A stretch of 64,000 bases of DNA from Escherichia coli (lineage in GTDB: Bacteria > Pseudomonadota > Gammaproteobacteria > Enterobacterales > Enterobacteriaceae): NCBI RefSeq assembly GCF_016026235.1, contig NZ_CP065613.1; one strand, given 5' to 3'. The notes beneath the pieces are model-generated. The model was not told the origin of the DNA. It saw nothing but the letters and a program-made list of their open reading frames with translations, and did no database searches. Positions 230-59,630 of this stretch are shown one piece after another. Both the position numbers and the translations under genes were made by a program. Positions within the stretch are counted from its first letter, which is position 1. Each line of letters starts with the position of its first letter.

Positions 230-1286
230 GGTTCTGCTCCTGTTGCAGACGTTTGAGTAGCTCCAGTTCGGCCTGGAAATCGACGTAGTGCGGGAGTTTG
301 AGGTGCGAGACAAAGCCTGCGGCTTCGACGTTGTCGGCATGCGCCAGCACGAACTCTTCATCCTGCGCCGGGCCTGTCGCGTGCTCGCCGTACTCCGGAG
401 CCTGCAACGCACGATCGACCAGCGCCATCGCCATCGCTTTGCGCTCGCTCATGCCGAACACCAGCCCGTAGCCGCGCGTGAAGTGCGGCGGCTCACCCGG
501 CAGGTCGATAAAACCGTTGATCATTTCACACTCAGTCATCAGCAATTCGCCGACGTTCACCGCAAATCCCAGCTCTTTCGGCACAATCGACACGTCGATG
601 TAACCACTGCGGATTTCACCCGCGAACGGGTGGTTGCGCCCGTAACCGCGCTGGGTGGAGTAGGCCAGCGCCAGCAAATAGCCTTCGTCGCCGCGCATCA
701 ACTGCTGCAAACGGGAAGAACGTGAGCAGGGGTAAACCGGCGGCGTGCGGGTGATGTCATCCGGCTGTGCGCCGCTATCCTCTTCAAACTTCGCCAGCCC
801 CTGACGCGCCAGCAGGCTGAAAACGTGCGGCGACGGCTGTTGTTCGCTGTCGGCGGTGGTCAGTGTCGGCGCTTCGCCGTTTGCCAGCAGGGTGAAATCG
901 AGCAGGCGATGGGTGTAGTCGTAGGTTGGGCCAAGCAACTGGCCGCCGGGAATGTCTTTATAAACCGCCGAAATACGCCGTTCGAGACGCATCCCGGTGG
1001 TGTCGAGCGGCTCGCTTACCGCAAGCTTCGCCAGCGTGGTGCGGTAGGCGCGCAGCAGGAAAATTGCTTCGACGTTATCGCCGCTGGCCTGTTTTAGCGC
1101 CAGCGCCGCCAGTTCGCGGTCGGCAATGCCGCCTTCGGTCATCACGCGATCCACCGCAAGATTAAGCTGCTGTTCAATCTGGGCGACGCTCAGTTCGGGC
1201 AAATCGGTATCGCCCCGGCGTCGGCTCTCTTGCAGGGCGTGGGCGGCGTCGATCGCCTTCTCGCCCCCTTTCACGGCAACGTACAT
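222..1286 (-). CDS. phnI: C-P lyase subunit PhnI
   Basis: ORF 222..1406; internal start [16 protein letters not shown] gives ~354 aa; operon position between phnH and phnJ. Confidence 0.9.
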   Translation of the reverse strand: MYVAVKGGEKAIDAAHALQESRRRGDTDLPELSVAQIEQQLNLAVDRVMTEGGIADRELAALALKQASGDNVEAIFLLRAYRTTLAKLAVSEPLDTTGMRLERRISAVYKDIPGGQLLGPTYDYTHRLLDFTLLANGEAPTLTTADSEQQPSPHVFSLLARQGLAKFEEDSGAQPDDITRTPPVYPCSRSSRLQQLMRGDEGYLLALAYSTQRGYGRNHPFAGEIRSGYIDVSIVPKELGFAVNVGELLMTECEMINGFIDLPGEPPHFTRGYGLVFGMSERKAMAMALVDRALQAPEYGEHATGPAQDEEFVLAHADNVEAAGFVSHLKLPHYVDFQAELELLKRLQQEQNHG

Positions 1287-1870
1287 CAGCACACCTCCAC
1301 ATGAGTGGTTCGCGGAATAGCCAGCAGGCGCTCGCCGCAGGTCAGGATCAGGTCGATGCCGAGCGGGAACGGGTGCGGGCGCTCGGTGAGTTCGTGCAGA
1401 ATGCACTCCGGCAGCTGCGGGGCGATCATTCGTTCTTCGGCAATACCCGCGCCGGTGAGACGCAGCATGCGCCCGCCGCTCAGGCTGGCGACCTGTAAAA
1501 TCAGCGTTGCACCCGCTTCCGGCGCAACGGCGGTGCCGGTGGAAAGGGCGTTAAGCTGTTCGCTGGAAATCGCCTCATCCGTTACCGCGAAGGTCGCCTG
1601 TTCCGGCTGGCTGACCAGCGGCGCGTTGGTATGAAAACGCAGGCTCTGGCTGACTATATCGTTACTTAATGGGGCAGAAAGCCACACCGGCGTGTCGTTA
1701 TCGGCCAGCGTCAGCAGCACGCTGGTGGTGGCGATATTCAGCGGCTGCCAGCCGCGTTTAAGCTGATGCAGGGCGACAATCACGCCCGGCTCGCTCATGG
1801 CCTTTAACAGGCGACGAAAACTGTGCTGGGCATCCTGCACGGGAAGCATAAAAGCGGTTTCCAGGGTCAT
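1286..1870 (-). CDS. phnH: C-P lyase subunit PhnH
   Basis: 194 aa ORF, overlapping start/stop with neighbours in the phn operon. Confidence 0.9.
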
Positions 1871-3065: not shown

Positions 3066-3845
3066 TCAGATAAAGTGCTTACGCAACCGTTGAGAGAGGA
3101 AATCCAGCAGGCTGACCGTGACGATAATCAGCACCATCAGGGCGCAGGTTTGCTGGAACTGGAAACCGCGAATCGCTTCCCACAGGGTGACGCCGATCCC
3201 GCCTGCACCGACCATGCCGACGACGGTCGCCGAGCGGACGTTGGATTCGAAGCGATAGAGGGAGTAGGAGATCAGCAGCGGCATCACCTGTGGCAGCACG
3301 CCGTAGAGGATCTCTTCCAGCTTGTTAGCACCGGTGGCGCGAATACCTTCCACCGGGCCGGGTTCGATCGCTTCCACCGCTTCAGAAAGCAGCTTGGAGA
3401 GCACGCCGGTGGTGTGGATAAACAGCGCCAGCACGCCAGCGAACGGGCCGAGGCCGACGGCGACCACGAACAGCATGGCGAAGACCATTTCGTTAATGGC
3501 GCGGCAGGCGTCCATCAGGCGGCGAACGGGCTGGTAAACCCACCACGGCACCAGGTTTTCGGCGCTCATCAGGCCGAAGGGGATGGAGAGAACCACCGCC
3601 AGCGCGGTGCCCCAGACGGCGATTTGCAGCGTGACGGCCATTTCGGTGAGGTAATCCTGCCACTGGCTGAAATCGGGCGGGAAGAAGTCGGCGGCGAATG
3701 TCGCCATGTTGCCGCCGTCTTTAATCAGCGTGAGCGGGGCCATTTCCGCGCCCTGCCACGAGACGACCAACACGGCGAGAACAACGGCCCAGCTCAGAAG
3801 CGAGAACCAGCTGCGCTTGGGTGGGGCGATGGTGATGGTTTGCAT
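3066..3845 (-). CDS. phnE: phosphonate ABC transporter permease, uninterrupted reading frame
   Basis: Continuous ORF 3066..3908; probable start [10 protein letters not shown]; hydrophobic membrane protein; no internal stop or frameshift. Confidence 0.85.
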
Positions 3846-3860
3846 GTTTGGCTCCGGTCT

Positions 3861-3947
3861 GTAGGCCGGATAAGGTGCTTGCACCGCATCCGGCATCAAC
3901 GCCTGCACATTGTCGGATGCGACGCCGGGGCGTCTTATCCGACCTAC
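3861..3947. repeat. REP/BIME palindromic repeats in phnE-phnD intergenic region
   Basis: gtaggccggataagg...gcatccggca and gtcggatgcgacgcc...cttatccgacctac motifs. Confidence 0.7.
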
Positions 3948-6418: not shown

Positions 6419-6599
<181 letters not shown>

Positions 6600-7350: not shown

Positions 7351-9579
7351 ATGTACACACAGACCCTGTATGAGTTAAGTCAGGAGGCTGAACGCCTGTT
7401 ACAGCTTTCTCGCCAACAGTTGCAGTTACTGGAAAAAATGCCTCTCTCTGTACCCAGAGACGATGCGCCACAACGGGCTTTACCCTGGAGTCAGCCTAAT
7501 ATCGCCGAACGTCACGCGATGCTGAATAATGAGTTGCGTAAAATTTCCCGACTGGAAATGGTGCTGGCGATTGTCGGTACCATGAAAGCAGGGAAATCAA
7601 CCACCATTAATGCCATTGTTGGTACGGAGGTACTGCCTAATCGCAATCGCCCAATGACTGCGCTGCCGACGCTTATTCGCCATACACCCGGGCAAAAAGA
7701 ACCGGTACTGCATTTTTCACATGTCGCGCCAATCGATTGTTTAATTCAAAAATTACAACAGCGCCTGCGTGATTGCGATATTAAGCATCTGACCGATGTG
7801 CTGGAAATAGATAAAGATATGCGTGCGCTTATGCAGCGGATCGAAAATGGCGTCGCTTTCGAAAAATATTATCTGGGTGCCCAGCCTATTTTTCATTGTC
7901 TGAAAAGTTTGAATGATTTAGTGCGACTGGCGAAGGCGCTGGACGTCGATTTTCCTTTTTCTGCTTACGCCGCCATTGAGCATATTCCCGTGATTGAAGT
8001 GGAGTTTGTCCATCTGGCGGGGCTGGAGAGTTATCCCGGTCAGTTGACGTTACTGGATACCCCCGGGCCAAATGAAGCCGGGCAACCGCATCTGCAAAAA
8101 ATGCTTAACCAGCAGCTGGCTCGCGCCTCGGCGGTACTGGCGGTGCTGGATTATACGCAACTGAAATCGATCTCCGATGAAGAGGTCCGTGAGGCGATTT
8201 TGGCGGTGGGGCAATCGGTGCCGCTGTATGTGCTGGTCAATAAGTTCGATCAACAGGATCGTAACAGTGACGACGCCGACCAGGTGCGGGCACTGATTTC
8301 CGGGACGCTGATGAAAGGCTGTATTACGCCACAGCAGATATTTCCGGTGTCGTCGATGTGGGGCTACCTGGCAAATCGGGCGCGCCATGAGTTAGCCAAC
8401 AACGGTAAGTTACCACCGCCAGAGCAACAACGCTGGGTGGAAGATTTTGCCCATGCCGCGCTCGGCAGGCGCTGGCGTCATGCCGATCTGGCGGACCTCG
8501 AACATATTCGTCATGCTGCCGATCAGTTGTGGGAAGATTCGCTGTTCGCCCAGCCAATTCAGATGTTGCTTCATGCCGCTTACGCTAACGCCTCGTTGTA
8601 TGCTCTGCGATCTGCCGCGCATAAACTGTTGAATTACGCGCAGCAGGCGCGGGAATACCTGGATTTTCGTGCGCACGGGTTAAACGTCGCTTGTGAACAA
8701 TTGCGGCAAAATATCCACCAGATCGAAGAAAGTTTGCAGCTATTGCAACTCAATCAGGCGCAGGTGAGCGGCGAGATTAAACATGAAATCGAGCTGGCCC
8801 TGACCTCCGCCAACCACTTTCTGCGTCAACAGCAAGATGCGCTGAAGGTGCAGTTAGCCGCCTTGTTTCAGGATGATTCGGAGCCGTTAAGCGAGATGCG
8901 TACCCACTGTGAGACACTGTTACAGACGGCGCAGAACACCATCAGTCGCGACTTTACGCTGCGTTTTGCCGAGCTGGAATCCACCCTTTGCCGAGTGTTA
9001 ACCGATGTTATTCGCCCCATTGAGCAACAAGTCAAAATGGAATTGAGCGAGTCAGGGTTTCGTCCTGGGTTTCATTTTCCTGTTTTTCACGGAGTAGTTC
9101 CCCACGTCAACACTCGCCAGCTGTTCAGTGAAGTCATTTCGCGCCAGGAGGCAACGGACGAGCAGAGCACGCGTTTAGGCGTTGTGCGTGAGACTTTTTC
9201 GCGCTGGTTGAATCAGCCCGACTGGGGATGGGGAAATGAGAAATCCCCGACAGAAACGGTTGATTACAGTGTGTTGCAACGAGCATTAAGCGCAGAAGTC
9301 GATCTTTATTGCCAACAAATGGCTAAAGTTCTGGCAGAGCAGGTCGATGAATCTGTTACGGCAGGCATGAATACTTTTTTCGCTGAGTTCGCTTCATGTT
9401 TGACGGAATTACAGACGCGTTTACGCGAAAGCCTGGCTCTGCGTCAACAAAATGAATCGGTGGTCAGGCTGATGCAGCAGCAATTGCAGCAGACTGTGAT
9501 GACTCACGGCTGGATTTACACCGACGCCCAGCTGTTACGCGATGATATTCAAACACTTTTCACGGCAGAACGATATTGA
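7351..9579 (+). CDS. crfC: dynamin-like GTPase (CrfC/YjdA)
   Basis: 742 aa ORF; P-loop GTMKAGKSTTINAIVG; long coiled-coil C-terminal half. Confidence 0.88.
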   Translation: MYTQTLYELSQEAERLLQLSRQQLQLLEKMPLSVPRDDAPQRALPWSQPNIAERHAMLNNELRKISRLEMVLAIVGTMKAGKSTTINAIVGTEVLPNRNRPMTALPTLIRHTPGQKEPVLHFSHVAPIDCLIQKLQQRLRDCDIKHLTDVLEIDKDMRALMQRIENGVAFEKYYLGAQPIFHCLKSLNDLVRLAKALDVDFPFSAYAAIEHIPVIEVEFVHLAGLESYPGQLTLLDTPGPNEAGQPHLQKMLNQQLARASAVLAVLDYTQLKSISDEEVREAILAVGQSVPLYVLVNKFDQQDRNSDDADQVRALISGTLMKGCITPQQIFPVSSMWGYLANRARHELANNGKLPPPEQQRWVEDFAHAALGRRWRHADLADLEHIRHAADQLWEDSLFAQPIQMLLHAAYANASLYALRSAAHKLLNYAQQAREYLDFRAHGLNVACEQLRQNIHQIEESLQLLQLNQAQVSGEIKHEIELALTSANHFLRQQQDALKVQLAALFQDDSEPLSEMRTHCETLLQTAQNTISRDFTLRFAELESTLCRVLTDVIRPIEQQVKMELSESGFRPGFHFPVFHGVVPHVNTRQLFSEVISRQEATDEQSTRLGVVRETFSRWLNQPDWGWGNEKSPTETVDYSVLQRALSAEVDLYCQQMAKVLAEQVDESVTAGMNTFFAEFASCLTELQTRLRESLALRQQNESVVRLMQQQLQQTVMTHGWIYTDAQLLRDDIQTLFTAERY

Positions 9580-10442
9580 CCAAGACGTTACTGGACGGCC
9601 CCGGTCGCGTGCTGGAGTCGGTTTATCCCCGCTTTTTAGTGGATCTGGCGCAGGGCGATGATGCCCGCCTTCCACAAGCCCATCAGCAGCAGTTTCGTGA
9701 ACGACTGATGCAGGAACTTCTTTCGCGTGTGCAGCTTCAGACATGGACGAACGGCGGCATGTTAAATGCGCCGCTTAGCCTGCGACTGACAATGGTGGAA
9801 AAACTGGCGTCGATGCTGGATCCCGGTCATCTGGCGCTGACGCAGATCGCGCAGCATCTGGCGCTGCTGCAAAAAATGGATCACCGCCAGCACTCTGCTT
9901 TCCCGGAGCTCCCCCAGCAAATTGCCGCCTTGTATGAGTGGTTTTCAGCCCGTTGTCGCTGGAAGGAAAAGGCGTTAACGCAACGAGGCCTACTGGTGCA
10001 GGCAGGTGATCAGAGCGAGCAAATTTTTACCCGCTGGCGTGCTGGGGCGTATAACGCCTGGTCGTTGCCTGGGCGCTGTTTTATCGTTCTCGAAGAGTTG
10101 CGCTGGGGTGCATTTGGCGATGCCTGCCGTCTGGGAAGCCCGCAAGCGGTGGTGTTGTTGCTGGGTGATTTGCGCGAGAAAGCGACACAACATCTGGCAG
10201 AGAGTATCAATGCGGCACCGACCACGCGTCACTATTACCATCAGTGGTTTGCCTCTTCGGGAGGGGAGCATGCTGATTTTTTAAGTTGGCTGGGAAAGTG
10301 GTCCATGGCAGATAAACAGCCCGTTTGCTGGTCAGTGACCCAACGCTGGCAAACAGTCGCGCTGGGGATGCCACGACTCTGTTCAGCGCAGCGTTTGGTG
10401 GGGGCAATGGTCGAGGAAATCTTCTCTGTAAATTTGGCGTAA
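9576..10442 (+). CDS. yjcZ: YjcZ, partner protein of CrfC
   Basis: 288 aa ORF overlapping crfC stop by 4 nt (translationally coupled). Confidence 0.8.
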   Translation: MTKTLLDGPGRVLESVYPRFLVDLAQGDDARLPQAHQQQFRERLMQELLSRVQLQTWTNGGMLNAPLSLRLTMVEKLASMLDPGHLALTQIAQHLALLQKMDHRQHSAFPELPQQIAALYEWFSARCRWKEKALTQRGLLVQAGDQSEQIFTRWRAGAYNAWSLPGRCFIVLEELRWGAFGDACRLGSPQAVVLLLGDLREKATQHLAESINAAPTTRHYYHQWFASSGGEHADFLSWLGKWSMADKQPVCWSVTQRWQTVALGMPRLCSAQRLVGAMVEEIFSVNLA

Positions 10443-12250: not shown

Positions 12251-12319
12251 ATTGAACTCTTAAGGTTCACTTAATCTCTGCCGCGCATACTCTCCTCCAG
12301 ATTAACGGAGGAGAGTGCA

Positions 12320-12409
12320 ATGAAAAACCGTGTTTATGAAAGTTTAACTACCGTGTTCAGCGTGCTGGTGGTCAGCAGCTTTCTTTATATCTGGTTTGCC
12401 ACGTACTGA
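12320..12409 (+). CDS. pmrR: small membrane protein PmrR-like (29 aa)
   Basis: ATG 12320, MKNRVYESLTTVFSVLVVSSFLYIWFATY, stop 12407..12409; preceded by GGAGGAG SD; overlaps 3' end of basS on the opposite strand. Confidence 0.6.
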   Translation: MKNRVYESLTTVFSVLVVSSFLYIWFATY

Positions 12410-13485
12410 TCTTTCTTCAGCCGTATCCAGGCGCGCGTGCCAGAAGTCTCTTGCCGGTTTTGCAGGAAAAACTGCCCGTGATGCAACTGTGTAATGCGGC
12501 TGACAATACTTAACCCCAGACCAATCCCGCCATAACGGCTGTCCATACGTACAAACGCTTTACTCAACTCCCCGCATTTACTCTCATCAATACCCGGTCC
12601 TTCATCTTCAACGGCCATGACCGCTCCGCTATCTTCTTGCAGCTTAATCATAATGTTGCTGCCTTGCGGGCTGTAACGATGGGCGTTTTCTACTAGGTTT
12701 CGCAATAACATCCGCAGCAGGGTTGCATCACCCTGAACGGTGATGTCGGCGGCGCTCTCTGGCAATAGCAGGGTTTGCTGTCGCTGGTCGAGCATGGTAC
12801 TGAGTTCGTCATACGAGGGGAGAATGACATCTTCCAGCAGTTTTACATGTTGATAATTACCGGAAGAAAATGACTGTCCGGCACGCGCCAGTTGCAGCAG
12901 CTGGGAGACGCTCTCCATCATCTGATCAAGCCGTGCCACTAACGGTGCTACATCAATGTGATGCGTTTTCGCCAGCAGTTCCAGATGCAAACGTACCCCC
13001 GCCAGTGGCGTTCGCAGTTCGTGCGCGACGTCAGCGGTAAATAACCTTTCGTTATCCAGCGTGCTGGTCAGGCGACTGACCAGATCGTTCAACGCCGAAA
13101 CCACCGCTTCGATTTCGAGGGTGGCGCTGTGAATGGCAATGGGCGTTAAGTTGTCGGCGGTGCGCGCTTCCAGCTCTTTTTGCAGCTCCGCCAGCGGGCG
13201 GGTGATGCGGCGTACCGCCTGATAGCAGATAAATAGCGTCAGGCTGACCATAAAGACGCCGGGGACAATCAGGCTGGCGACCGCCTCGCGGATCTCACGC
13301 ATGATGTGGCGATCGTTGTTGCGATTGTCGCGTAGCGCCTGCTCAAACAGCTGAATCTGCTCGGTACTTTCATGCCATAGCCAGAAGACGCTGATCAGCT
13401 CAAACACCAACAAAATGGCCCCGATGGTCAATATCAGCCGTTGGCGCAGCGATATTGGTCGGCGCAGAAAACGCATCAGATTCAA
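12385..13485 (-). CDS. basS: sensor histidine kinase BasS/PmrB
   Basis: 366 aa ORF; H-box ADVAHELRTPLAG; HATPase motifs; start overlaps basR stop. Confidence 0.9.
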   Translation of the reverse strand: MNLMRFLRRPISLRQRLILTIGAILLVFELISVFWLWHESTEQIQLFEQALRDNRNNDRHIMREIREAVASLIVPGVFMVSLTLFICYQAVRRITRPLAELQKELEARTADNLTPIAIHSATLEIEAVVSALNDLVSRLTSTLDNERLFTADVAHELRTPLAGVRLHLELLAKTHHIDVAPLVARLDQMMESVSQLLQLARAGQSFSSGNYQHVKLLEDVILPSYDELSTMLDQRQQTLLLPESAADITVQGDATLLRMLLRNLVENAHRYSPQGSNIMIKLQEDSGAVMAVEDEGPGIDESKCGELSKAFVRMDSRYGGIGLGLSIVSRITQLHHGQFFLQNRQETSGTRAWIRLKKDQYVANQI

Positions 13486-32289: not shown

Positions 32290-32562
32290 ATGGAAATACG
32301 CGAAGGCCACAATAAATTTTACATTAATGACGAACAAGGCAAGCAAATCGCTGAAATTGTCTTTGTGCCGACTGGAGAGAATTTAGCGATTATCGAACAT
32401 ACCGATGTCGATGAAAGCCTGAAAGGGCAGGGGATTGGTAAACAGCTGGTTGCAAAAGTCGTGGAAAAAATGCGTCGGGAAAAACGAAAAATTATCCCAT
32501 TATGTCCATTTGCGAAACACGAATTTGATAAAACGCGGGAGTATGATGATATTCGTAGTTGA
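32290..32562 (+). CDS. yjdJ: GNAT-like small acetyltransferase YjdJ
   Basis: 90 aa; GQGIGKQL acetyl-CoA binding-like motif. Confidence 0.75.
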
Positions 32563-32788
32563 TGGAAGAGTACAGAGCCACGATATTTTTCATGCTCTCC
32601 GCGGAGTGATGCAGGAGAGCATCTGAAGGGTCGGGGGATGCACAAAGAATGGGCAGAGAGCGCGTTTTTTTGTCCCAAGTCATCCCCTTTACTGAGCAAA
32701 AAAAAGAATATCTCCTATATGAGAATCATCAATCGGGGTTAATAAGTTTTGCGTCCCCAGAGCGTTCAATATTGATAGGAGTCATATT

Positions 32789-33085
32789 ATGGAAGGTAAA
32801 AACAAGTTCAATACTTATGTTGTTTCTTTTGATTATCCATCATCTTATTCCTCAGTGTTCTTAAGGTTAAGATCATTGATGTATGATATGAATTTCTCCT
32901 CTATCGTGGCTGATGAATATGGGATACCACGACAATTGAATGAAAACTCCTTCGCAATAACGACATCGTTAGCCGCAAGTGAAATCGAGGATTTAATCAG
33001 GCTCAAATGCTTAGACTTACCGGATATTGATTTTGACCTCAACATTATGACAGTTGATGACTATTTCCGTCAGTTTTACAAGTAG
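32789..33085 (+). CDS. ghoS: type V antitoxin GhoS (endoribonuclease)
   Basis: 98 aa ORF immediately upstream of ghoT-like small hydrophobic ORF. Confidence 0.8.
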   Translation: MEGKNKFNTYVVSFDYPSSYSSVFLRLRSLMYDMNFSSIVADEYGIPRQLNENSFAITTSLAASEIEDLIRLKCLDLPDIDFDLNIMTVDDYFRQFYK

Positions 33086-33112
33086 CCAGGAAGGATAAGA
33101 AGAACATAAAAA

Positions 33113-33286
33113 ATGGCACTATTCTCTAAAATATTAATTTTTTATGTGATTGGTGTGAACATATCCTTTGTCATTATCTGGTTTATCTCACATGAGAAAA
33201 CACATATTCGTTTACTTAGTGCATTCCTGGTCGGAATAACCTGGCCAATGAGTCTGCCTGTGGCATTACTTTTTTTTCTCTTTTAG
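33113..33286 (+). CDS. ghoT: small membrane toxin GhoT (57 aa)
   Basis: ATG 33113; MALFSKILIFYVIGVNISFVIIWFISHEKTHIRLLSAFLVGITWPMSLPVALLFFLF; stop TAG 33284..33286; not in the supplied ORF track (<60 aa). Confidence 0.75.
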   Translation: MALFSKILIFYVIGVNISFVIIWFISHEKTHIRLLSAFLVGITWPMSLPVALLFFLF

Positions 33287-33404
33287 GAGCTGTAGTTGAG
33301 TGGACCCGCTGGTTATCGTGAAACGAAGCGTCTCTCCTCAAAACTGGATTTGCGGAACGATGAACGAAGCAGTCGCCTGACTGCTTCGTTCATTAAAGTG
33401 AAAA

Positions 33405-34922
33405 TTATTTCTGTGGGCGCATCGCCGGGAAGAGAATAACGTCGCGAATAGTATGACTGTTTGTAAACAGCATAATCATTCGGTCGATACCAATACCCAG
33501 ACCAGCGGTTGGCGGCAGACCATATTCCAGCGCAGTCACGTAATCTTCGTCATAGAACATGGCTTCGTCGTCACCTGCAGCTTTAGCGTTAACCTGTTCC
33601 TGGAAACGTTCAGCCTGATCTTCTGCGTCGTTTAATTCGCTAAAACCATTACCGATTTCACGACCACCGATGAAGAATTCAAAACGGTCGGTGATTTCTG
33701 GGTTAACATCATTACGGCGTGCCAGCGGTGACACTTCTGCCGGATATTCCGTAATAAAGGTTGGCTGAATCAGATGTGCTTCTGCCACTTCATCAAAGAT
33801 CTCCGTGACAATACGTCCCAGCCCCCAGCTTTTCTCTACCGTAATACCGATAGATTCAGCTAATTCTTTAGCAGCATCAAAATTATCCAGGTCGGCCATA
33901 TCGGTTTCTGGACGATATTTTTTGATTGCTTCGCGCATGGTGAGTTTTTCAAACGGTTTGCCGAAATCAAACACATGCTCGCCATAAGTGACTTTAGTGG
34001 TACCCAGAACCTCTTGTGCCAGGGTGCGGAACAGGGACTCTGTCAGTTCAATCAAATCGTGGTAATCCGCATACGCCATGTAGAGTTCCATCATTGTGAA
34101 CTCAGGATTATGGCGAACAGAAATACCTTCATTACGGAAGTTACGGTTGATTTCGAATACCCGTTCAAAACCGCCTACAACCAGACGTTTCAGATACAGC
34201 TCTGGCGCGATACGCAGATACATATCTAAATCCAGAGCATTATGATGGGTAATAAACGGGCGAGCAGATGCCCCACCTGGAATTACCTGCATCATCGGGG
34301 TTTCTACTTCCATAAAGCCGCGCGCGACCATGAACTGACGGATAGCGGCCAGAATTTTTGAACGGACAACGAACGTTTGACGGGATTTATCGTTAGCGAT
34401 GAGGTCCAGATAACGTTGACGATAACGGACTTCCTGATCCTGCAGACCATGGAATTTATCTGGTAAAGGACGTAGTGCTTTAGTCAGCAGGCGCAGCTCA
34501 GTACAGTGAATGGAAAGCTCACCCGTTTGCGTCTTAAACAGCGTACCGCGGGCACCGATAATGTCACCCAGATCCCATTTTTTAAACTGATCGTTATAAA
34601 CACCTTCTGGCAGGCTATCTCTTGCAACGTACAGTTGAATACGGCCACCGACATCCTGCAACGTTACAAAGGAGGCTTTCCCCATGATACGACGGGTCAT
34701 CATTCGGCCAGCAACCGAGACTTCAATGTTTAAGGATTCCAGTTCCTGGTTATTCTTCGCATCAAACTCTTCGTGCAACTGGTCAGAGGTATGGTCGCGG
34801 CGAAAATCATTGGGAAACGCCACACCTTGCTGACGTAGTGCCGCCAGTTTTTCGCGGCGATTTCTCAGTTCATCGTTAAAATCAATAGCCTCATTGGCTC
34901 CCCGTGTTTCTTGTTCAGACAT
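33405..34922 (-). CDS. lysU: lysyl-tRNA synthetase, inducible isoform
   Basis: Start [26 protein letters not shown]; 505 aa class II aaRS. Confidence 0.92.
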
Positions 34923-41510: not shown

Positions 41511-42803
41511 CTGAGGGATCCCCAGAAAATTTAGTAAACCATTATCATATTGGTATACCGTTGCTGTAGAACTTTCAGCCCTGCGTCAAGTGACAGTGTG
41601 TTTAGTATGAGTGGAGAATGTCGAATCACATTCTCCGCCAGTTTTAATAACGAGATGACTCGCCTGTGCTTCACTGTATTTGCCTGATATTTATGATGTA
41701 TCCCTTTGTTTTCCAGGCTGAAACCGCTTAACCACATAATGATACTGGCTAATGTTGCGATCAGACTCAATACCGTGACCCGCCCGGATGAATGACTGGC
41801 ACCAAACCGTAGTCCAAATCCCCAGCGAGGATTTTTTCATCCCTGAAATTTTGCTCAATTTGCATTCTACGGCTGTATAATTTCATTACCTGTTTTGGCG
41901 AGAACTCAGTACTGTTTGTGAAAATAAACCATGGTGATTTCCCGGCAGTACGAGCTTTAGCCGTCACCGATGGTCTGGTTGCTCTTTCCTTCGAGCGTTT
42001 AAATCTACGACCTTTAGGCTTACTTTTATAAAGATAAAAATGCCCTTCATGTTGTGCATTTTTATCTCGACCCAGCAGGCCTTCACCTAAATAAATTGCT
42101 GTCGTTGATGCTTTTGTGCCTGAGTCCGACACCTTTTCCCAGCCATTACCAACATTGTAATAATGATTGCCCAGTACCCGGCAAATATAGGTCCAGCCAC
42201 GGGAGCGGAGCTGTTGGAACCATCGCCCCTGAAAACCGGCATCTGTAATAACAATGACATCAGTCCCGGGGGAAAAGCACTCAGCAAGCGATTCCAGAAA
42301 ACGCTCATGTACATCTGCATTCGCTGTCTGTGATGATGGAACGACACAACTCATCAACGGTAAAGAACGCCCGTCACATGCCAGGCTTGCCCGCAAAAGC
42401 TGAAAACGAGAGGCATGATAAGCACTCCAGTCAATGAGTATCACAACACGAGACATTCCCCGCGTAATCTTTTGGGTAATTCGCTGAAAAATGGTGGAAA
42501 CCTCATTTTGCAAATGTCGATTCCCCAACAGTCGATCCACCCGCTTTATTTTGTTTTTAACTGATGCCGTACCGGTTAAATGACGCCCGATACTGGTAAG
42601 TGTGAGGGAAGCGCCATTTATTACAGCATTAGTTGCGTCAATCAGTGATTTTTGACGGTAAAGATGCAAAGGGGCCAGTATGTTGTTAAGGAAATTTTGG
42701 CATAATGAACGTGCAGGCATAGTGGTGATCTCCTTGAAATTGTTAGCACAATCAATTAGATCACATCTCACTATGCCTGTCTTGTTTTCTGGGGATTCCT
42801 CAG
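41511..42803 (-). mobile_element. IS10-like insertion sequence (IS4 family), ~1293 bp, inserted in cadC
   Basis: Imperfect terminal inverted repeats CTGAGGGATCCCCAGAAAA (41511..) and revcomp CTGAGGAATCCCCAGAAAA (..42803); flanking direct repeat gggaactcc(a) at 41501..41510 and 42804..42813; encodes IS10-related transposase. Confidence 0.85.
41531..42720 (-). pseudogene. IS10-family DDE transposase, disrupted by a frameshift near 41797..41808
   Basis: ATG 42720 preceded by AAGGAGAT SD; motifs KRVDRLLGNRHL, ILIDWS, ITDAGF, YSRRMQIEQNFRDEK align with IS10 transposase; frame ends at 41767 and C-terminal homology (QANTVKHRRV...) continues in another frame (41531..41770). Confidence 0.75.
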
Positions 42804-44018
42804 GGGAACTCCAGCTGTTACAACTTTTATTTACCATATTAATGTCAATATCGCGTGGATTGAGCAAAATACGCGATTTGCTCATCGGAAGACGTGTATC
42901 AAGACTTGAAAACGCTACCAGTGCTACACAGATACCTAAGGACAACAGGAAAAAAAACCATACCCAAAAGGTAGTGAATCGTTTGCTTTTAACTGGGGAT
43001 TGTTCAGGTGGCGTTGCGGTGTTTTGAATGTTAAGGCTGTGGGAGGGAGAATCTGTGGCAGGAACCGCCTCTGGTATAGGGGGAGGCGAAGATAGCATTA
43101 TTTCCTCTCCCTCTTCTTCGCTGTACCAGATAACCGGCACCATTAATTTATAGCCGCGCTTTGGTACAGTAGCGATATAGACAGGACTATCTTCATCATT
43201 ATCTTTTAATGAATTACGTAGTTCTGAGATACTCTGCGTCACAACGTGATTGGTGACAATACTTCTCTTCCAGACATTATCGATAAGTTCATCCCTGCTA
43301 AGTACTTCGCCACTGTGTTGAGCAAAGAAAACCAGAAGATCGATTAATCTCGGCTCAAGGGTAAGTTGACGCCCATTGCGGCTAATTTGGTTTATGGACG
43401 GAGTAACAAGCCATTCGCCAACGCGAACTACAGGTTGTTGCATAATAGAAACTCATTCGAAAAGGGAATGATGCAATGATAATTGCCACAACCTATTTTT
43501 ACCATCTATAGATGGGTTTATTTACATATTATTGGTGAATGCAAGACGTTATTTTTACCAGCCATAAACTTCTTGATTACATGGTATTACGAAAGGATTT
43601 TACTGAGAACCAGAAGTAATATTCCTTACCATCAAAATTCATCATCTTTGCCAAAGAAAAATGTTCAGAAAATAATCCATGGAAAATTGTCCGGAGCGCT
43701 TACTATTTTAATGGATTGTTAGTCTTTGCATGAGCAAGGGGACTGATACATTTCTCTTTGTTCTCATTCAGAAAATCTCATCAGTCGCCGTTCAGACCGG
43801 TGTTGTGCTTTATGGATGCGTTACGCTCCTGATGACGTCATTTGACGTTCAACAGCATCACGGGGTCGCACGACATTTCACGTCAGTTAGTGCTATAGCT
43901 CAGGAACAAATTTTCCCGAATTGGGATATGCCCGCAAATTGCTGGTGATGTGGGGAGAATCTGGTTGAGTTCGGTAGAATTGATTTGGCGGCAGAACGCT
44001 TAAATCGTGGCGTCCTGA

Positions 44019-57825: not shown

Positions 57826-57951
57826 ATGATGAAACGCCTTATCGTTCTTGTTTTGCTTGCCAGCACGCTGCTCACGGGCTGTAACACCGCTCGCGGTTTC
57901 GGCGAAGACATCAAACATCTCGGCAACTCCATCTCTCGCGCTGCCAGCTAA
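57826..57951 (+). CDS. ecnA: entericidin A small lipoprotein (41 aa)
   Basis: [41 protein letters not shown]; lipobox LTGC; below ORF-track size cutoff. Confidence 0.8.
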
Positions 57952-58061: not shown

Positions 58062-58208
58062 ATGGTGAAGAAGACAATTGCAGCGATCTTTTCTGTTCTG
58101 GTGCTTTCAACAGTATTAACTGCCTGCAACACCACGCGTGGCGTTGGTGAAGACATTTCTGATGGCGGTAACGCGATTTCTGGTGCAGCAACGAAAGCGC
58201 AGCAATAA
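58062..58208 (+). CDS. ecnB: entericidin B small lipoprotein (48 aa)
   Basis: [48 protein letters not shown]; paralog of ecnA. Confidence 0.8.
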
Positions 58209-58244
58209 GCAATATGATCCTACCCACGTAATATGGACACAGGC

Positions 58245-59111
58245 CTAAGCGAGGTTCTGGTTTTCAAATTGTTCCGGACTGAGGCCGCCACACCAACTGT
58301 GCCGCCGCCACCGATTGTAATCACATTCGATATAATTAAACACCGTTGCCCGCATTATTTCCCAGCTGATAAAGTGTTCTCCATGGATACATTCCACTTT
58401 CAGCGAATGAAAGAAGCTTTCCACGCAGGCATTATCGTAGCAGCAACCTTTTGCGCTCATACTTCCACGCAGATTATGCCGCTTCAGTTGCGCCTGATAA
58501 TCTGCTGAACAGTACTGGCCTCCACGGTCCGTGTGAACGATAACGTTCCGGGGCCTCTTACGCCGCCACAGCGCCATCTGCAGGGCATCGCAGGCCAGTT
58601 GCGCCGTCATGCGTGGCGACATTGACCAGCCAATAACGGCACGTGACCACAGGTCAATGACCACTGCCAGATACAGCCAGCCTTCATCTGTACGTAAGTA
58701 CGTGATGTCTCCTGCCCACTTCTGGTTCGGGCCACTGGCGTAAAAATCCTGCTCCAACAGATTTTCTGACACAGGCAGGCCGTGTGCGCGGTAGCTGACC
58801 GGGCTGAACTTCCGGGAGGCATTTGCCCTCAGTCCCTGACGGCGCAGGCTTGCCGCCACGGTTTTTACGTTAAAGGGGTAACCCTGAGCACGCAGTTCAT
58901 CCGTCAGGCGTGGGGCACCGTAACGCTGTTTTGACCGGGTAAAAGCCGCGAGGACAACGCTGTCGCAGTGTTGGCGGAACTGCTGACGCGTGCTTATCCT
59001 TGTCCGCCGCTGACACCACGTATACCAGCCGCTGCGGGCCACCCGGAACACGCGGCACATTGCTTTGATGCTGAACTCAGCCTGATGTTTTTCAATAAAG
59101 ACATACTTCAT
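58245..59111 (-). CDS. insF: IS3 transposase OrfB (DDE integrase domain)
   Basis: 288 aa; [21 protein letters not shown]...; ATGA overlap with orfA stop. Confidence 0.9.
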
Positions 59112-59407
59112 TTCAGGCGCTTCGCGAAGTATGTCGCGGCCTTTTGGAGGATAGCCAGCTCTTCATCCCGTTCTGCCAGCTGGCGTTTGAGACGTGCAAT
59201 CTCGGTAGACATCTCCAGTTCACGTTCAGAAGACGTCTGCTGATTTTGCTGTTTACTGCGCCAGTTGTAGAGCTGTGATTCATACAGGCTGAGTTCACGG
59301 GCTGCGGCAGTAACACCGATGCGTTCAGCAAGCTTCAGGGCTTCACTGCGAAATTCAGGCGAATGCTGTTTACGGGGTTTTTTACTGGTTGATACTGTTT
59401 TTGTCAT
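59108..59407 (-). CDS. insE: IS3 transposase OrfA (HTH)
   Basis: Start [29 protein letters not shown]; ~99 aa. Confidence 0.88.
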
Positions 59408-59580
59408 GTGAGTCACCTCTGACTGAGAGTTTACTCACTTAGCCGCGTGTCCACTATTGCTGGGTAAGATCAATAACGGTACGACAGCTGTGTCGTGCCG
59501 TTTGTTTTCTCTGCGATAGTCACAAAGGTAATAGTTGAAATTCCCCTGCCACCTGGCAAAATATCCGTTCAACCATCAGC

Positions 59581-59630
59581 TTTGCAGGACGACCTGCAAA
59601 CGCGTCTTTTCACCGGGGACGGCCCCAATT
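59581..59630 (+). ncRNA. guanidine-II riboswitch (mini-ykkC) in gdx leader
   Basis: Two short hairpins with ACGR loops: gcaggACGAcctgc (59584..59597) and ggggACGGcccc (59615..59626), followed by SD GGAG and gdx ATG at 59645. Confidence 0.8.

Follow-up and report, generated by a model that had tools for sequence, protein, structure and literature searches.

Does the 64,000-nucleotide stretch of Escherichia coli DNA analysed here (the window) carry a type V toxin–antitoxin pair, in which the antitoxin is a protein endoribonuclease cleaving the toxin mRNA, and is the toxin gene of this pair one that a length-filtered list of open reading frames overlooks? A sequence-only reading of the window had proposed just this, pointing to a 98-aa ghoS-like ORF and, 27 bp downstream, to a gene for a 57-aa hydrophobic two-helix peptide that was absent from the ORF track, and it had named a homology search as a check. 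The comparisons reported below indicate that the locus is almost certainly the chromosomal ghoS-ghoT operon of E. coli, the founding type V toxin–antitoxin system, in its normal chromosomal place. We make this assignment because of the identity of GhoS, and the near-identity of GhoT, with the proteins of the founding member, the GhoS/GhoT system of E. coli K-12, which was reportedly described by Wang et al. in 2012 (Nat Chem Biol 8:855, as cited in PMC4010927). The features to which the argument refers are as follows.

32777..32781, plus strand: AGGAG, a Shine-Dalgarno-like motif 7 nt 5′ of the ghoS ATG, read from the sequence, with a putative function.
32789..33085, plus strand: ghoS (yjdK), encoding the 98-aa endoribonuclease antitoxin; ATG start; assigned by Pfam, PDB identity and RefSeq annotation.
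32909..33011, plus strand: span of the three 5′-GCU (MqsR-preferred) sites in the ghoS mRNA, at 32909-32911, 33001-33003 and 33009-33011.
33086..33112, plus strand: the ghoS-ghoT spacer of 27 nt, purine/A-rich, CCAGGAAGGATAAGAAGAACATAAAAA, read from the sequence.
33113..33286, plus strand: ghoT (yjdO), encoding the 57-aa membrane toxin with two hydrophobic helices; ATG start; assigned by Pfam and K-12 identity.
33275..33277, plus strand: ghoT codon 55, TTT (Phe) here versus TCT (Ser) in K-12, through a C>T change at 33276 within a T-run.
33359..33394, no strand assigned: a hairpin (stem of 16 bp, loop of 4 nt) in the interval that separates the stop codon of ghoT (33284-33286) from that of the convergent gene lysU (33405-33407).

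The antitoxin gene was found where the sequence-only reading had placed it. Its product matches the Pfam family PF11080 (Endoribonuclease GhoS) with an E-value of 6.1e-41 and a score of 138.8 bits (cutoff 21), and all of its residues are the same as in the K-12 GhoS/YjdK protein of PDB entry 2LLZ, chain A, an E. coli chain titled ‘uncharacterized protein YjdK’ (98/98, E 7.8e-62). At the DNA level, the gene differs from MG1655 b4128 by two synonymous changes. The translation bears L25, R28 and M31, just as the K-12 protein does; R28 is the most important catalytic residue of GhoS, with L25 and M31 as its neighbours (PMC4010927). A search with the NCBIfam HMMs returned no match for either the GhoS or the GhoT protein. 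NCBIfam seemingly has no HMM for these two proteins, and the RefSeq names probably rest on another type of evidence; the silence of this library does not argue against the GhoS/GhoT identity.

The toxin gene likewise turned out to be an ATG-initiated ORF at 33113..33286, separated from ghoS by exactly 27 nt, and it is missing from the ORF track because its 57 codons fall below the default cutoff of the ORF tool, 60 aa. The peptide is strongly hydrophobic (GRAVY 1.56), with hydrophobic segments at about residues 1-26 and 34-57 and a polar loop, SHEKTHIR, between them, thus bearing out the description of a two-helix peptide; two transmembrane domains have been predicted for GhoT, and in its homologue OrtT they span residues 6-26 and 34-54 (PMC4344625). 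The Pfam profile PF10753 (Toxin_GhoT_OrtT) is covered over all of its positions (1-55 of 55) with an E-value of 4e-24, and 56 of the 57 residues are the same as in K-12 GhoT (MG1655 b4559). Both F38, which is invariant in the alignment of homologues, and I21 are present; the substitution F38R abolishes GhoT toxicity (PMC4344625). A database entry titled ‘type V toxin-antitoxin system toxin GhoT [Escherichia coli]’ already has the exact peptide sequence of the window. One might suppose that ghoS alone is real and that the 57-codon frame is open by chance, since the ORF is short and the locus is AT-rich, with a GC content of about 35% versus 50.5% for the window as a whole. But the end-to-end match to a Pfam profile speaks against this, as do the 44-61% identity of the peptide to OrtT and to its homologues in Pantoea, Klebsiella and Proteus, the annotation of ghoT in the RefSeq records examined and the published toxicity of K-12 GhoT (PMC4344625). 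The probability left to a chance ORF is negligible, and the conservation across genera rules this reading out.

The two genes show a bicistronic layout: they share a strand, and the one for the antitoxin lies directly 5′ of the one for the toxin. In the spacer, AGGAAGGA lies 17 nt and AAGAAG 10 nt from the ghoT ATG, so that the ribosome-binding site of ghoT is only weak or distant. The RNA fold of the ghoS/ghoT junction showed no more structure than shuffled sequence did (z = 0.10), and since this fold is at chance level, the idea of a sequestered ghoT ribosome-binding site was dropped. Upstream, a consensus scan of the plus strand over the 226-nt region 5′ of ghoS gave no convincing sigma-70 promoter; the best candidates were TTGATG (TTGACA-like) at 32559, followed after 17 nt by GATATT (8/12), and another one within yjdJ. 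Downstream, a consensus scan of the locus called no canonical intrinsic terminator. Folding of the region 33287..33410 gave a minimum free energy of -42.8 kcal/mol with z = -4.68, and none of the 200 shuffled sequences folded as well. The hairpin at 33359..33394 was found by this folding only, the terminator scan having skipped it for want of a trailing U-run; probably, it serves as a shared bidirectional structure at the ends of the ghoT and lysU transcripts. A smaller 9-bp inverted repeat (ATGCTCTCC, 13 nt, GGAGAGCAT) was seen at 32592..32622 in the yjdJ-ghoS intergenic region, just 3′ of yjdJ, again with no U-run after it; this repeat could mark the end of the yjdIJ transcript.

According to the mechanism drawn from published K-12 work, ghoS and ghoT would be carried on one transcript. 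GhoT, a small two-helix inner-membrane peptide, would damage the membrane and lower the ATP level, and its overproduction would give rise to ‘ghost’ cells and to lysis or dormancy; GhoT has been described as a membrane-lytic small protein causing membrane damage, ATP loss and lysis (PMC4344625). GhoS, a stable Cas2-like sequence-specific endoribonuclease, would neutralise GhoT by cutting the ghoT part of the mRNA, neither binding the toxin nor repressing the promoter. The published data describe GhoS as stable under stress, as exerting no transcriptional control of the pair and as cleaving the ghoT mRNA specifically (PMC4344625); its targets comprise the ghoT mRNA and about 20 other mRNAs (PMC4010927). 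The proposal that the antitoxin of the locus is an endoribonuclease acting on the toxin mRNA agrees with the mechanism published for these very two genes (PMC4344625, PMC4010927, PMC3905216).

The same published cleavage of the ghoT mRNA by the GhoS protein bears on a different view of the locus, namely that ghoT is controlled in the manner of type I toxins (Hok, TisB, Ldr), with a small RNA, either antisense or cis-encoded, as its regulator in place of GhoS. GhoT does resemble type I toxins in its size and hydrophobicity, and two minus-strand promoter-like matches are found inside ghoT (33159>33130). However, the total of four promoter-like matches is no excess over the shuffled sequences (3.0 +/- 2.0), and an Rfam search of 32400..33500 gave no family, antisense sRNAs included, at the gathering threshold or even at E <= 1. 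The empty Rfam result and the unremarkable structure of the junction argue against hidden RNA-based control; the control of ghoT by an antisense sRNA is very improbable, and we rejected it in view of the empty Rfam search.

Under stress, the type II toxin MqsR would cut 5′-GCU sites, which are present in ghoS and not in ghoT, such that the ghoT message would be enriched and the toxin made. MqsR has been found to cut preferentially the ghoS part of the ghoS-ghoT transcript, thereby activating GhoT (PMC3905216, PMC5408214), and the ghoT mRNA is described as having no GCU, the MqsR site (PMC4344625, PMC3905216, PMC5408214). In the window, we counted three GCT in ghoS and none in either the spacer or ghoT. 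That ghoT has no GCU fits the published model but is not statistically significant by itself, the zero count being seen also in 10% of mononucleotide shuffles (P ~0.10). The mqsRA genes map to another part of the E. coli chromosome, beyond the 64 kb of the window.

The genomic surroundings lead to the same assignment. The gene order dcuS-yjdI-yjdJ-ghoS-ghoT-lysU is that of the MG1655 b4125–b4129 region, where the spacing of 27 nt is also the same, and the window segment 28205..38205 is 99.04% identical to MG1655 4348000-4358000 with no gaps. Collinearity with MG1655 (4319378-4381230) extends over the whole window, except for two IS insertions and a difference in repeat copies, and the K-12 proteins of the region are all intact in the window, with the exception of CadC. 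When the 821 bp covering the locus were used as a query against 5,426 complete E. coli genomes, matches were obtained in 5,341 of them, in 5,264 over at least 80% of the query. In the twelve best-matching records, the RefSeq labels read ‘type V toxin-antitoxin system endoribonuclease antitoxin GhoS’ and ‘type V toxin-antitoxin system toxin GhoT’. A few records labelled as E. coli plasmids also contain ghoT (NZ_CP048307.1, NZ_CP128951.1 and NZ_CP134663.1). In NZ_CP048307.1, the one examined, ghoST stands in full chromosomal synteny from fumB to cadB; most likely, this record is a chromosomal segment or a mis-assigned replicon. Given this synteny in a plasmid-labelled record, a mobile plasmid copy of ghoST was rejected.

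Taken together, the two Pfam families, the synteny with K-12 and the RefSeq labels agree with the designation of the locus as a type V GhoS/GhoT pair. The window shares with the K-12 system (YjdK/YjdO; b4128/b4559) the sequence, the gene order, the spacing, the flanks, the key residues (R28 in GhoS, F38 and I21 in GhoT) and the pattern of GCU sites; it differs in having S55F in GhoT, two silent substitutions in ghoS and, in the non-coding flanks, eight SNPs. The ghoST locus found here is thus already known and routinely annotated, with minor differences from K-12 only. As a discovery it carries little weight: ghoST has been characterised since 2012, the structure of the antitoxin is solved, and the pair is annotated in the RefSeq E. 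coli records examined. Its value is one of calibration, in that a known toxin gene of less than 60 aa was recognised although it was hidden by a length-filtered ORF track. The physiological role of chromosomal toxin–antitoxin loci, ghoST included, is debated.

The GhoT of the window can further be placed among the small proteins that it resembles. Closest is OrtT (YdcX), the orphan GhoT paralogue of E. coli, which has the same Pfam family PF10753, the same length of 57 aa and the same two-helix layout, is 61% identical to the window GhoT and has F38 and the C-terminal PVALLFSLF motif in common with it. OrtT differs in having no adjacent ghoS and in its location elsewhere, beside yncL and ydcY; moreover, OrtT is not neutralised by GhoS, and its mRNA has two GCU sites (PMC4344625). 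GhoS, for its part, has been reported to be homologous in structure to Cas2, with conservation of five catalytic residues (PMC4010927, PMC7438911); unlike the Cas2 endoribonucleases of CRISPR-Cas systems, the GhoS encoded here has no CRISPR context and acts on the ghoT mRNA. The toxins of Hok/Sok, TisB/IstR and Ldr/Rdl and the entericidin pair EcnA/EcnB are, like GhoT, small hydrophobic membrane-damaging peptides kept under control at the post-transcriptional level or by a paired antidote. The antidotes are of different kinds, however: an antisense RNA in the type I systems, a lipoprotein in the case of EcnA, and a protein RNase in that of GhoS. Nor do the type I toxins and EcnA/EcnB have any sequence relation to GhoT, for which Pfam matched the GhoT_OrtT family alone. 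The window itself contains ecnA (57826..57948) and ecnB (58062..58208), encoding the entericidin antidote and the bacteriolytic lipoprotein, both 100% identical to K-12; this is a second small-peptide toxin/antidote locus under the 60-aa ORF cutoff.

The single coding difference of ghoT from K-12, the C>T change at 33276 resulting in S55F, deserves separate consideration. Residue 55 lies within the conserved C-terminal motif PVALLFSLF and is Ser or Ala in the five aligned homologues (K-12 GhoT, OrtT, Pantoea, Proteus and Klebsiella), whereas it is Phe in the window; Ser/Ala at this position is no published defining feature of the GhoT/OrtT family, and it is listed here as the sole deviation found. 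A 245-bp ghoT segment, compared with the complete RefSeq E. coli genomes, had as its best match 99.6% with one mismatch, and none of these genomes was identical to the window over the segment. GhoT with F55 was found on 28 contigs versus at least 1000 for the K-12 allele, so the strain of the window may be put on record as a carrier of an uncommon GhoT allele. The F55 contigs fall into three contexts (L005, L006 and L007). Over 20 kb, GCA_900449985.1 (L007) and the window share 99.995% identity, and GCA_031665325.1 (L005) combines a window-type backbone with an IS1 element within ghoS, whereas the L006 carrier has the K-12-type haplotype at all other variable sites of the locus. With both the window-type and the K-12-type haplotype bearing it, the C>T change at 33276 has arisen, or been transferred, at least twice.

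Two strains with an IS1 insertion in the locus were seen. In L005, the element occupies 8926..9693, corresponding to window positions 32806..32814; it interrupts ghoS at codons 6-9 and is accompanied by a 9-bp duplication, GTTCAATAC. After the IS1, a 97-aa ORF starting with TTG would encode a hybrid GhoS′ with a hybrid N-terminus. In NZ_CM172481.1 (strain GZ2408C), the IS1 lies at about 1000..1787, between ghoS and ghoT. In both strains (GCA_031665325.1 and GZ2408C), ghoT is intact, and its link to ghoS is disturbed.

Judging from its similarity to the K-12 toxin, we infer that the window GhoT with S55F would behave like K-12 GhoT. A bulky aromatic residue at a Ser/Ala position may nevertheless reduce or alter the toxicity. 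The locus would then be ghoST by descent, with a toxin attenuated or inactivated through S55F, a decaying or neutralised module. The change is non-conservative and affects a residue inside a conserved motif, the F55 allele is rare, and the recurrence of the same C>T on two haplotypes would fit with such attenuation, as would the fact that a near-identical F55 strain tolerates the IS1 in ghoS codons 6-9. On the other hand, Phe is hydrophobic and is placed at the end of a transmembrane helix, where it could well be tolerated; the ghoT ORF is otherwise intact and keeps F38 and I21; the recurrence may simply reflect a mutational hotspot in the T-run; and the IS1 strain retains the ORF for the 97-aa GhoS′, such that the antitoxin may still be made. 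We consider attenuation through S55F to be rather unlikely, and it is the sole live alternative among the rival explanations. A further suggestion, that selection has repeatedly favoured S55F as an allele attenuating the toxin or altering its function and that type V toxin loss or retuning would be ongoing in the cadC-disrupted lineage, appears improbable to us; alternatively, the substitution would be a neutral hotspot mutation in the T-run. The reading preferred here thus stays that of a ghoS-ghoT operon of the K-12 type.

The disruption of cadC is one of several further differences observed in the window. The gene is interrupted at about codon 211-216 by a 1.29-kb element of the IS4 family (DDE_Tnp_1, IS10-like) at 41514..42802, and the insertion has created an ORF (41767..43443, minus strand) in which the N-terminus of CadC is fused to the transposase. 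At 41838, the window has T6 versus T7 in the near-identical L005 and L007, resulting in a frameshift of the transposase. In Shigella and enteroinvasive E. coli, the loss of cadC is known as a pathoadaptive change. The second insertion is an IS3 copy at 58215..59470 between ecnB and gdx, with orfA at 59108..59416 and orfB at 58245..59111, both on the minus strand. It has entered just after ecnB, and about 110 nt further on lies the Guanidine-II riboswitch (59581..59627) in front of gdx/sugE; through the insertion, gdx may be cut off from transcription signals on its upstream side.

Elsewhere in the window, naRNA4 (CssrE) repeat units of about 100 bp were found at 3864..3944 and 6420..6596, and in the yjdN-yjdM intergenic array MG1655 has about four more 100-bp units than the window. 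The phnE gene at 3068..3896 aligns with the translation of the K-12 pseudogene (phnE1) as two overlapping pieces in different frames, which suggests that the window may carry the intact, non-duplicated form of phnE. Finally, the sRNA STnc630 (Rfam, 178 bits) at 12251..12416 overlaps the gene for the 29-aa small protein pmrR (12320..12406); the site is downstream of proP, and the 3′ end of basS lies antisense to it.
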